From an uncultured Chloroflexia bacterium (GTDB lineage: Bacteria > Chloroflexota > Limnocylindria > Limnocylindrales > CSP1-4): a stretch of DNA of 64,000 bases. Below, piece by piece: positions 52,912 to 53,217 of the stretch. The notes beneath the pieces were generated by a model. The model saw only the letters and a program-made list of their open reading frames with translations. It did not search any database and was not told the origin of the DNA. Location: positions 328,955-392,954 of the forward strand of contig CAWHXD010000017.1 in assembly GCA_963833225.1 (NCBI GenBank), in the 5' to 3' direction. The stretch's first letter is position 1, and each line of letters starts with the position of its first letter. Both the position numbers and the translations under genes were made by a program.

Positions 52912-52941
52912 TTGACGCCAGCCCCACCGCTCCGGCAACAT
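52912..52941 (+). promoter_or_regulatory. Putative promoter of the metY leader
   Basis: TTGACG-18 nt-CAACAT. Confidence 0.5.
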
Positions 52942-52951
52942 CCACTTCCTG

Positions 52952-53038
52952 ATGGCTTACACCACTGTCGCTTGGCTGATGTGCATGCGTGGGCGGCCCC
53001 GTCGTTCGGAGGACGGGCGCCGAGGTTCCCCGCGCTGA
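52952..53038 (+). CDS. Putative leader peptide MAYTTVAWLMCMRGRPRRSEDGRRGSPR
   Basis: 28-aa ORF with adjacent Met-Cys-Met codons, between promoter and terminator upstream of metY. Confidence 0.65.
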   Translation: MAYTTVAWLMCMRGRPRRSEDGRRGSPR

Positions 53039-53080
53039 TCGTCAGCGAGTGACGCGGGGATCTCGGAGCCGAGGTCCCGG

Positions 53081-53116
53081 AGCCGCGAACCAGCGAGGGT
53101 TCGCGGCTTTCTTGTT
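53081..53116 (+). terminator. Intrinsic terminator (attenuator) upstream of metY
   Basis: AGCCGCGAACC-agcgag-GGTTCGCGGCT followed by TTCTTGTT. Confidence 0.85.
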
Positions 53117-53217
53117 CTCCGGCACCAACGACGGGTAGCCGCCGAGCCTCACCCCCGCCCGGGGGCCCCCTCGACGACCGACCATCCGATACCCGTCATC
53201 ACCGGAGAACCCGCGCC

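Follow-up and report, generated by a model that had tools for sequence, protein, structure and literature searches.

Leader-peptide attenuators, as known from the trp, his, leu, thr and ilv operons of proteobacteria and from trp and ilvB of Actinobacteria, combine a short leader open reading frame (ORF) rich in codons of the end product, a terminator between the leader and the structural genes, and mutually exclusive helices whose choice depends on the position of the ribosome. In the searchable literature, this mode of control has been reported for Trp, His, Leu, Thr, Ile/Val and Phe, and for Cys in mycobacteria. Here, we analyze a leader of the same general build at positions 52912-53217 of a stretch of 64,000 nucleotides (nt) from an uncultured Chloroflexia bacterium (contig CAWHXD010000017.1), referred to as the window throughout. 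The leader lies directly 5' of metY (53218 onward) and a gene for a metX-like hydrolase. A preliminary description, made from the letters alone, had presented it as a candidate Met/Cys-sensing attenuator of these two genes.

In the mycobacterial "Cys ribulon", ribosomes stalled on hungry codons of polycysteine leaderless short ORFs block the fold that hides the Shine-Dalgarno (SD) sequence of the next gene (Canestrari et al. 2020, bioRxiv 10.1101/834739). According to the accessible part of that study, the Cys tract pairs with the SD region, the locus studied has no terminator, and the leaders are of independent origins. A comparative study of Actinobacteria describes, in its accessible text, Cys leader peptides without terminators in some of these bacteria and no RNA regulatory structures before Met and Lys operons (Seliverstov et al. 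2005, PMC1262725). Met or Lys leaders are likewise not mentioned in the accessible text of Naville and Gautheret 2010 (PMC2965389). Our own full-text search, with subscription journals and supplementary tables outside its scope, found no Met- or Lys-codon attenuator, in agreement with the preliminary description, which knew of no Met-codon attenuator described for this operon; the supplementary short-ORF tables of Canestrari et al. (41 mycobacteria), which also lie outside that scope, might hold Met-rich leaders. A third group of regulators, composed of S-adenosylmethionine (SAM) riboswitches (SAM-I, SAM-IV and others), T-boxes and lysine riboswitches, occupies the same position before Met/Cys or Lys genes and also acts on a terminator or an SD sequence.

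Compared with these systems, the leader in the window has features of its own. Unlike the classical attenuators, it carries Met and Cys codons (Lys in sister copies), is probably leaderless or nearly so, with no SD sequence before the ORF, and has only two or three regulatory codons, placed at a fixed distance from the switch. One scaffold appears to serve three amino acids, and an anti-SD segment would add a second, translational layer. With the mycobacterial leaders, as far as their accessible description goes, it shares an occurrence at several loci of one pathway and would share a leaderless sensory ORF placed first in the transcript. In contrast to them, it belongs to a set of clear homologues with a shared peptide motif, including Met and Lys versions, and the copy in the window has a single Cys codon between two Met codons and no consecutive Cys codons, while some paralogues have CC or CCC. 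Unlike the riboswitches and T-boxes, it has no match in Rfam, and sensing appears to proceed via translated codons.

We propose, at a probability of about 0.75, that the region is a ribosome-dependent attenuator of metY-metX which senses the supply of Met and Cys via a near-leaderless ORF. Its specific wiring, above all the antiterminator step, is a tentative model that falls somewhat short of an even chance. The promoter-like hexamer pair, the ORF, the helices and the terminator of the preliminary description are all present at the coordinates given in Table 1. The idea of a sensor is strongly supported by comparison among relatives, namely by coding selection on the ORF, a match between codons and downstream pathway, covarying helices, and two predicted folds.

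Distribution of the leader family

The 331-nt leader was found by sequence search with 76-93% identity in 34 of the 36 genomes of the same genus, and in none of 24 sister-family genomes. Among the 30 loci listed from the genus, metY is the next gene in 29. Shorter second matches inside the same genomes revealed paralogous leaders. Two covariance models were constructed, R1 on 42 seed sequences and R2 on 77 matches. Within the same bacterial family, R1 matches 63 of 108 genomes, as against none of 42 in the sister family, and R2 matches 101 of 150 family genomes (a tally that counts one unpublished genome, G218), spread over 39 of 49 genera. In the window's own genome, the models recover two copies, the strong one being the leader in the window and the other one weak.

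Codon identity and downstream pathway

Codon frequencies were taken over the eight codons before the conserved peptide motif R-x-R-P, with the key codons at positions -1 and -3. The metY leaders (53 loci) show per-codon frequencies of 0.29 for Met, 0.11 for Cys and 0.00 for Lys, and 51 of them carry M-x-M, mostly M-C-M. The M-x-M codons noticed in the window are conserved in the leaders upstream of metY.

A different pair of codons was found before a different operon. Four weak R1 matches encode K-x-K instead and lie 5' of dapB-dapA. Another 40 weak matches were obtained with R2; 29 of these encode K-x-K, with DapB_C next in 28 cases and the remaining locus cut by the contig end. All 34 Lys-type leaders have K-x-K at the very position of M-x-M, and dapB follows in 33 of them, the sole locus without dapB ending at a contig edge. 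Their peptide motif reads W-R-P-C-R-E-A-R. In the genome of the window, the weak copy has MSHLNLVTFDAKKKPWWPSREARAQGL as its peptide and is followed by dapB (DapB_C); this genome therefore holds both the Met/Cys type, in the window, and the Lys type, before dapB.

Cys-rich leaders (ICC, CCCM, CCC, CVCMC, CC/GCC) were identified 5' of genes for beta-carbonic anhydrase (Pro_CA), OsmC-like proteins and sulfite reductase (NIR_SIR), and also before a family-3 solute-binding component of an ATP-binding cassette (ABC) transporter. M-A-M leaders lie 5' of a gene for a PALP enzyme (L111, L147). When further amino-acid types were looked for among about 120 loci, only Met, Cys and Lys were seen. A codon identity that matches the downstream pathway is predicted by a ribosome-stalling sensor and not by a riboswitch.

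Two of these groups deserve a remark of their own. The PALP enzyme after the M-A-M leaders has 450-540 residues, and its N-terminal part resembles threonine synthase; we presume that it could be an enzyme of the homocysteine or methionine pathway rather than ThrC. The OsmC-like and beta-carbonic-anhydrase loci with Met/Cys- or Cys-type leaders are numerous (L038, L039, L042, L044-L049, L070, L087, L096, L103, L104, L113, L119, L122, L125, L130, L136, L151). Several of these leader copies have no U tract and would act on translation only. Their codons suggest that the OsmC-like and beta-carbonic-anhydrase genes belong to the sulfur/cysteine economy, and beta-carbonic-anhydrase-like enzymes might, as we assume, hydrolyze carbonyl sulfide.

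The leader ORF and its peptide

The ORF of 28 codons, which the preliminary description had noted as lacking a ribosome binding site and containing Met-Cys-Met, is kept in frame in all 30 genus loci, is present across genera, and runs in frame into the conserved core in nearly all family members. Among 33 unique leaders of the H-T-x-V-S-W type, the His, Thr and Val codons differ at the third position only, and the Ser codons switch between TCC, AGC and AGT. Such variation indicates that the ORF is under coding selection, i.e., for a peptide or for decoding and not for RNA pairing, and it supports the view that the leader ORF is translated.

The N-terminal peptide motif H-T-(T/Q/C)-V-S-W (52952-52978 in the window) is kept as an amino-acid sequence across genera, although the conserved RNA core does not include it. 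In one genus, the N-terminus is longer and of another sequence (..SMMSMPGRPRSAEDGV), without H-T-T-V-S-W. The C-terminal motif R-P-R-R-x-E-D-G is nearly universal in the family.

RNA architecture and covariation

A long-range helix enclosing the terminator was found by RNAalifold on the seed alignment, and the full model is a four-way junction composed of P1, P1b, P2 and the terminator hairpin P3. Over 82 distinct sequences, 88.7% of the cells of this fold are paired and 40 of its 50 pairs show compensatory changes. None of 500 shuffles reaches the observed values, and slid partners attain at most 49.5% pairing. P1 joins 52992-53004 with 53129-43 and its pairs are 85-94% paired; P1b joins 53007-14 with 53114-21 (92.9% paired, 7 of 8 pairs compensatory). 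P2, the pairing between segments 1 and 2 of the preliminary description (53020-34 with 53053-66), consists of helices that are 73-81% paired, with compensatory changes in 10 of 11 pairs. The window also contains, at 52998-53017, the upstream hairpin CCCGTC/GACGGG of the preliminary description.

An alternative to P2 is found outside the model. Segment D can pair with segment E (53057-66 with 53069-78), and in this D:E helix, pairing amounts to 77.6%, with compensatory changes in 7 of 9 pairs. The Lys type keeps both P2 and D:E with quite different sequences. Since the two helices are mutually exclusive, as had been proposed, and both are conserved, they constitute a conserved switch. The junction strands are invariant: GGTCCCGG and GGCGG.CCCG occur in 42 of 42 seed sequences. 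P1, P1b, the anti-SD segment G and the 9-nt antiterminator candidate described below are elements that the preliminary description did not contain.

In most other genera, the E core GGTCCCGG, situated between P2 and P3, also pairs with a conserved CCGGGACC located 20-60 nt after P1, forming a pseudoknot (E:I; e.g., L047, L064, L084, L100). The run is 7 nt or longer at 41 of 79 loci and exceeds 95% of the shuffles at 27 of 79; some genera show compensatory changes, TGTCCCGG going with CCGGGACA. The window has a 5-nt run only, no better than shuffles, and the pseudoknot is weak in the window's genus.

Predicted alternative global folds and the metY SD

The whole leader of the window (52949-53240) was folded with a ribosome placed at different codons, using two footprints. 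The ribosome-free RNA forms hairpin 1 (the second half of the ORF against 53012-45), D:E (0.97), the terminator, and a pairing of G with the SD of metY (G:SD, 1.00), with the SD unpaired at 0.00. Much the same holds with the ribosome on B' or at the stop codon, where G:SD stays at 0.64-1.00, the stop codon giving the lowest value, and the SD has an unpaired probability of 0.00-0.13. When the first Met codon is in the A site, P1, P1b and P2 are predicted at 0.67-0.99 with both footprints, G:SD falls to 0.01-0.33, and the SD becomes unpaired at 0.33-0.49. The same SD-freeing fold is obtained with the Cys codon in the A site, for the short footprint only. In the window, G and the SD region are complementary over 9 nt (53114-22 with 53202-10), and a complement of at least 7 nt exists in 8 of the 9 metY loci of the genus that were examined. 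In the predicted fold, the SD is paired by 53114-22 and not by the regulatory codons 52979-87. Folding thus predicts translational attenuation by a relay, in which the stalled ribosome would open hairpin 1, B' would take G, and the SD would be freed.

These folds modify the preliminary description, in which segment 2 was to leave segment 1 for 53069-87, invade the left arm of the terminator and so permit read-through. The part of that pairing between 53057-66 and 53069-78 is conserved. The invasion of the terminator, however, amounts to four pairs across a 5-nt bulge in the window and three pairs in most relatives. The helix between segment 2 and 53069-78 is no antiterminator, as it forms together with the terminator in the ribosome-free fold, and the polarity is reversed: this helix belongs to the OFF fold, while the pairing of segments 1 and 2 belongs to the ON fold with the stalled ribosome. 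What stands of the proposed control of metY-metX by stalling at Met-Cys-Met is the sensing principle, which comparison upholds; its antitermination wiring does not.

Terminator and candidate antiterminator

A terminator scan yielded 2 terminator-like sites versus 0.4 expected in shuffles. The terminator of the leader, described before as a perfect 11-bp stem with a U tract, comprises 13 pairs at 53079-53110 followed by TTTCTTGTT in the scan. As helix P3, it is 95.9% paired with compensatory changes in 11 of 13 pairs, and at least six T in the 10-nt tail were found in 69 of 80 family members.

A 9-mer within segment A (52993-53001) is complementary to 53078-86, the foot of the left arm of the terminator. 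This helix, denoted A:T-left, reaches 97% pairing in the family as a whole. At its eighth pair, the Met/Cys type has C-G, while the Lys-rich set shows U-A (14), U-G (14) or C-G (11). All nine pairs are Watson-Crick in 53 of the 69 members with a U tract and in none of the 7 members without one, these seven being close kin that represent few independent events. We also folded truncated transcripts of 72 sequences, ending inside the terminator loop, and counted A:T-left when it reached at least 0.5. With the ribosome at the first regulatory codon, this was the case in 46-58 of 72. A:T-left is the best candidate for an antiterminator, in a kinetic role only. Alternatively, the terminator may just be leaky, with regulation acting on translation.

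In three metatranscriptome libraries, taken from different studies, contigs of close relatives extend over about 52963-53184 and thereby bridge the terminator, with a query share of at most 0.14. This presence of the leader in RNA libraries is a weak hint, as contigs reveal no transcript ends or strand and may derive from carried-over DNA.

Proposed mechanism

In the model that we favor, transcription would start a few bases before the ATG at 52952 and a ribosome would translate the ORF at once. With ample Met-tRNA and Cys-tRNA, it would reach the stop codon inside P2 and leave. The RNA would then adopt the OFF fold, composed of hairpin 1 (the 52970s to 53004 with 53012-53045), the D:E hairpin and the terminator; in transcripts that read through, G (53114-22) would mask the SD of metY. 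When Met or Cys is scarce, the ribosome would wait at 52979-87, facing segment A. Hairpin 1 would be held open, B and D would form P2, and the freed 9-mer of A would pair with the emerging 53078-86 and delay the terminator stem, acting as a kinetic antiterminator. After read-through, A would shift to H (P1) and B' to G (P1b), closing the four-way junction and leaving the SD free, which is the ON state.

Such a device would depart from the classical three-hairpin picture in that the terminator sits within a four-way junction that cannot close its outer helices before read-through, and in that the candidate antiterminator is a 9-bp long-range helix which does not win at equilibrium. Relative to the mycobacterial leaders, insofar as their accessible description allows the comparison, the regulatory codons are not paired to the SD, the signal would be relayed via A, B' and G, and a terminator is present.

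Weighing of the evidence

Several results weigh against the proposed attenuator, in part or as a whole. As alignments A2 to A4 had been adjusted to the structure of the model, the pairing figures lean towards it, and the related sequences in the covariation counts are not independent. A ribosome at the second Met codon abolishes the SD-exposing fold. Only 15 of 80 loci have a G:SD complement of 7 nt or more beside a start codon, and G:SD pairing was consequently rejected as a universal feature of the family. The conserved H-T-T-V-S-W motif is not accounted for by the attenuator model.

Most of the adverse points concern the terminator. In equilibrium folding with ribosome masks, it is predicted at 1.00 in the ribosome-free RNA and at all 29 ribosome positions, so that masking the footprint did not produce the antitermination expected in the preliminary description, and its probability is at least 0.88 in most of 16 relatives. 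As the terminator wins at equilibrium, any antitermination must be kinetic. The compensatory change in A:T-left is essentially one lineage split. In the truncated transcripts, A:T-left reaches 0.5 or more also in 30 of 72 sequences without a ribosome and in 39-42 of 72 with the ribosome at the stop codon, and in 0 of 72 with the ribosome at the last regulatory codon and a footprint extending to +12; the simulation separates the states only partly. Before D emerges, A is paired alike with or without the stalled ribosome (0.79 vs. 0.81), although the competing hairpin is then about 15 kcal/mol weaker with the ribosome present. Finally, position 53081 is A in the window and G in the other 29 aligned genus loci as well as in contigs from four sequencing runs. 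This A creates a mismatch in the window's own A:T-left and also removes a G·U from the foot of the terminator.

Other explanations have to be considered against this background. TnaC and SpeFL are arrest peptides that respond to a small molecule in the exit tunnel, and the nascent leader peptide (H-T-T-V-S-W ... R-P-R-R-x-E-D-G) might likewise stall the ribosome near the end of the ORF, the Met/Cys codons being secondary. The conservation of its N-terminal part as amino acids and the near universality of its C-terminal motif fit this idea, as does the prediction that A stays free with the ribosome at the stop codon (the 39-42 of 72 sequences given above). The C-terminal motif, however, overlaps the helices of A and B', so that its conservation may stem from constraints on the RNA; on the same scaffold, the Lys type carries another motif, one genus lacks the N-terminal motif, and a strict link between codons and pathway is not predicted. 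We consider an arrest-peptide sensor unlikely. Somewhat less probable still is a metabolite-binding riboswitch, in which the four-way junction, together with the pseudoknot in most genera, would bind a ligand of the sulfur pathway and the ORF would be incidental or modulating. Its invariant junction strands and its complex, covarying fold with long-range E:I pairing are what one would expect of such an RNA. Yet each of the invariant strands has two or three alternative partners, which also explains invariance, the ORF is under amino-acid-level selection outside the structured core, and the same scaffold stands before dapB with Lys codons and before metY with Met codons, which tracks tRNA charging and not a single ligand. 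Rfam provides no family match either. At gathering scores, no SAM, S-adenosylhomocysteine (SAH), T-box or lysine riboswitch was detected in the 64-kb window; a permissive scan of 52500-53400 gave no SAM, SAH or T-box match at E<=10, and 15 homologous loci, including three dapB leaders, gave no such match at E<=0.1. The preliminary description, which saw no SAM or T-box consensus, is thereby borne out. The sole match of the permissive scan was psaA RNA (RF01752), similar in outline in that two hairpins are combined with one outer and one inner helix. It scored 23.7 bits over 52978-53177 against a gathering score of 50, had no match at E<=0.1 in the 15 homologous loci, and was taken as a chance resemblance of GC-rich folds with several helices.

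It is also conceivable, though very improbable, that the product acts in trans, the terminated leader of about 165 nt as a small RNA or the 28-residue peptide as a small protein, with no control of metY in cis. The RNA and peptide of the Sinorhizobium trp attenuator reportedly have trans roles, the terminator is predicted in every state, and the peptide is conserved. On the other side, the element is always located directly 5' of pathway genes that match its codons, and G and H, which lie 3' of the terminator, covary with upstream segments, which matters only in read-through transcripts. A chance ORF with chance GC-rich hairpins in a long 5' untranslated region might be suspected in high-GC DNA, which is rich in both (48 ORFs in 7 kb); in view of the conservation, the covariation and the codon-to-pathway link, which contradict it, this explanation is hardly credible.

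The locus and its surroundings

The coordinates of all elements are collected in Table 1.

Table 1. Elements of the metY leader, adjacent genes, and the Lys-type leader of the same genome.
Feature	Position	Strand	Remarks
-35-like hexamer TTGACG	52912-52917	+	kept in 30/30 aligned genus loci; no call in strict sigma-70 scan
-10-like hexamer CAACAT	52936-52941	+	10 nt before ATG; 18-nt spacer to TTGACG
Leader ORF, 28 codons, MAYTTVAWLMCMRGRPRRSEDGRRGSPR, then stop	52952-53038	+	ATG 52952, TGA 53036-38; no SD before it
Regulatory codons ATG-TGC-ATG (Met-Cys-Met)	52979-52987	+	last ATG 8 nt before the 9-mer of segment A; fixed distance
Segment A, GGCGGCCCCGTCG	52992-53004	+	5' strand of P1; local hairpin with 53012-21
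Segment B', CGGAGGAC	53007-53014	+	SD mimic; pairs with G as helix P1b
Segment B, CCGAGGTTCCCCGCG	53020-53034	+	5' strand of P2 (segment 1 of the preliminary description)
P2 apical hairpin	53035-53047	+	holds leader stop TGA 53036-38; 4/4 pairs compensatory
Segment D, CGCGGGGATCTCGG	53053-53066	+	3' strand of P2 (segment 2 of the preliminary description); alternative partner E
Segment E, CCGAGGTCCC	53069-53078	+	pairs with D (GGGATCTCGG, 53057-66) in the predicted ribosome-free fold
Intrinsic terminator (helix P3)	53079-53116	+	stem 53079-91/53098-110, 13 pairs; U tract TTTCTTGTT 53108-16
Segment G, GTTCTCCGG	53114-53122	+	anti-SD; perfect complement of 53202-10; alternative partner B'
Segment H, CGACGGGTAGCCGCC	53129-53143	+	3' strand of P1
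SD region of metY, CCGGAGAAC	53202-53210	+	holds metY SD, GGAG at 53204-07, 10 nt before ATG
metY (O-acetylhomoserine sulfhydrylase family)	53218-54544	+	Pfam Cys_Met_Meta_PP, 2e-111
metX-like alpha/beta hydrolase	54559-55713	+	Pfam Abhydrolase_1, 1.4e-10
Lys-type leader of the same genome	L161:1460-1700, contig C19		other Lys-type loci among L114-L118, L126-L160

A strict sigma-70 scan called 0 promoters, and the assignment of the promoter-like pair TTGACG..CAACAT, first seen in the preliminary description, therefore rests on the conservation of TTGACG. A -10-like hexamer 6-10 nt 5' of the start codon, with no SD, is found in the window and in most relatives; in the paralogous leaders, it is a TAnnnT-like hexamer 6-10 nt before their ATG or GTG. 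Judged from the position of the -10 hexamer, transcripts would have 0-4 nt before the ATG at 52952 and would thus be leaderless or nearly so.

Within metY, a one-base shift near 54303-54305 splits the gene into two frames, as revealed by tblastn with the MetY of a relative: the frame with residues 1-362 ends at 54303, and residues 363-442 follow in the next frame from 54305. Comparable split matches exist in three relatives (L002, L022, L024), and these similar splits suggest an assembly indel, with a real frameshift or decay of the locus as the alternative. The hydrolase encoded at 54559-55713 is probably a homoserine O-acetyltransferase, judging from its position.

Three copies of TCACCAC(C/T)G(C/G)TGAT(C/G) are located 100-290 nt 5' of the promoter, at 52666-52680, 52728-52742 and 52842-52856, the third one being a near-perfect palindrome. 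They may form an operator at which a DNA-binding regulator acts. In addition, 52785-52821 holds an inverted repeat of 17 nt. The upstream gene at 49487-51814 encodes a histidine kinase (HAMP, HisKA, HATPase_c), and an ORF of 316 residues with weak SHOCT and EF-hand matches only lies between it and the leader. A thiamine pyrophosphate (TPP) riboswitch at 46046-46156 on the minus strand (59.5 bits) and a tRNA at 57290-57361 on the plus strand (69.8 bits) are the sole Rfam matches at gathering score in the window.

Implications for the family

The leaders may be regarded as a modular cassette. One inherited scaffold, in which a leaderless ORF and its conserved peptide are combined with a terminator, an anti-SD and a four-way-junction RNA with a pseudoknot, would have been re-targeted during evolution by the mere exchange of two or three codons (Met/Cys, Cys, Lys), and the copies would make up a regulon, read by ribosomes, for sulfur and aspartate-family amino acids. 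In its boldest form, the nascent peptide (H-T-T-V-S-W, R-P-R-R-x-E-D-G) and the junction would act as well, via tunnel-mediated pausing or the binding of a factor or ligand, and integrate tRNA charging with a second signal. This reading as a whole is speculation, and on present grounds we would not expect it to hold.

Met/Cys, Cys or Lys codons at the same position of one scaffold, each before matching genes, amount to a natural codon-swap experiment, which makes the sensing principle directly testable. For this uncultured bacterial family, the leaders would provide an annotation rule for the control of metY, dapB-dapA, sulfite reductase, and a set of OsmC and beta-carbonic-anhydrase genes, the latter two of which would thereby be tied to the sulfur/cysteine economy.

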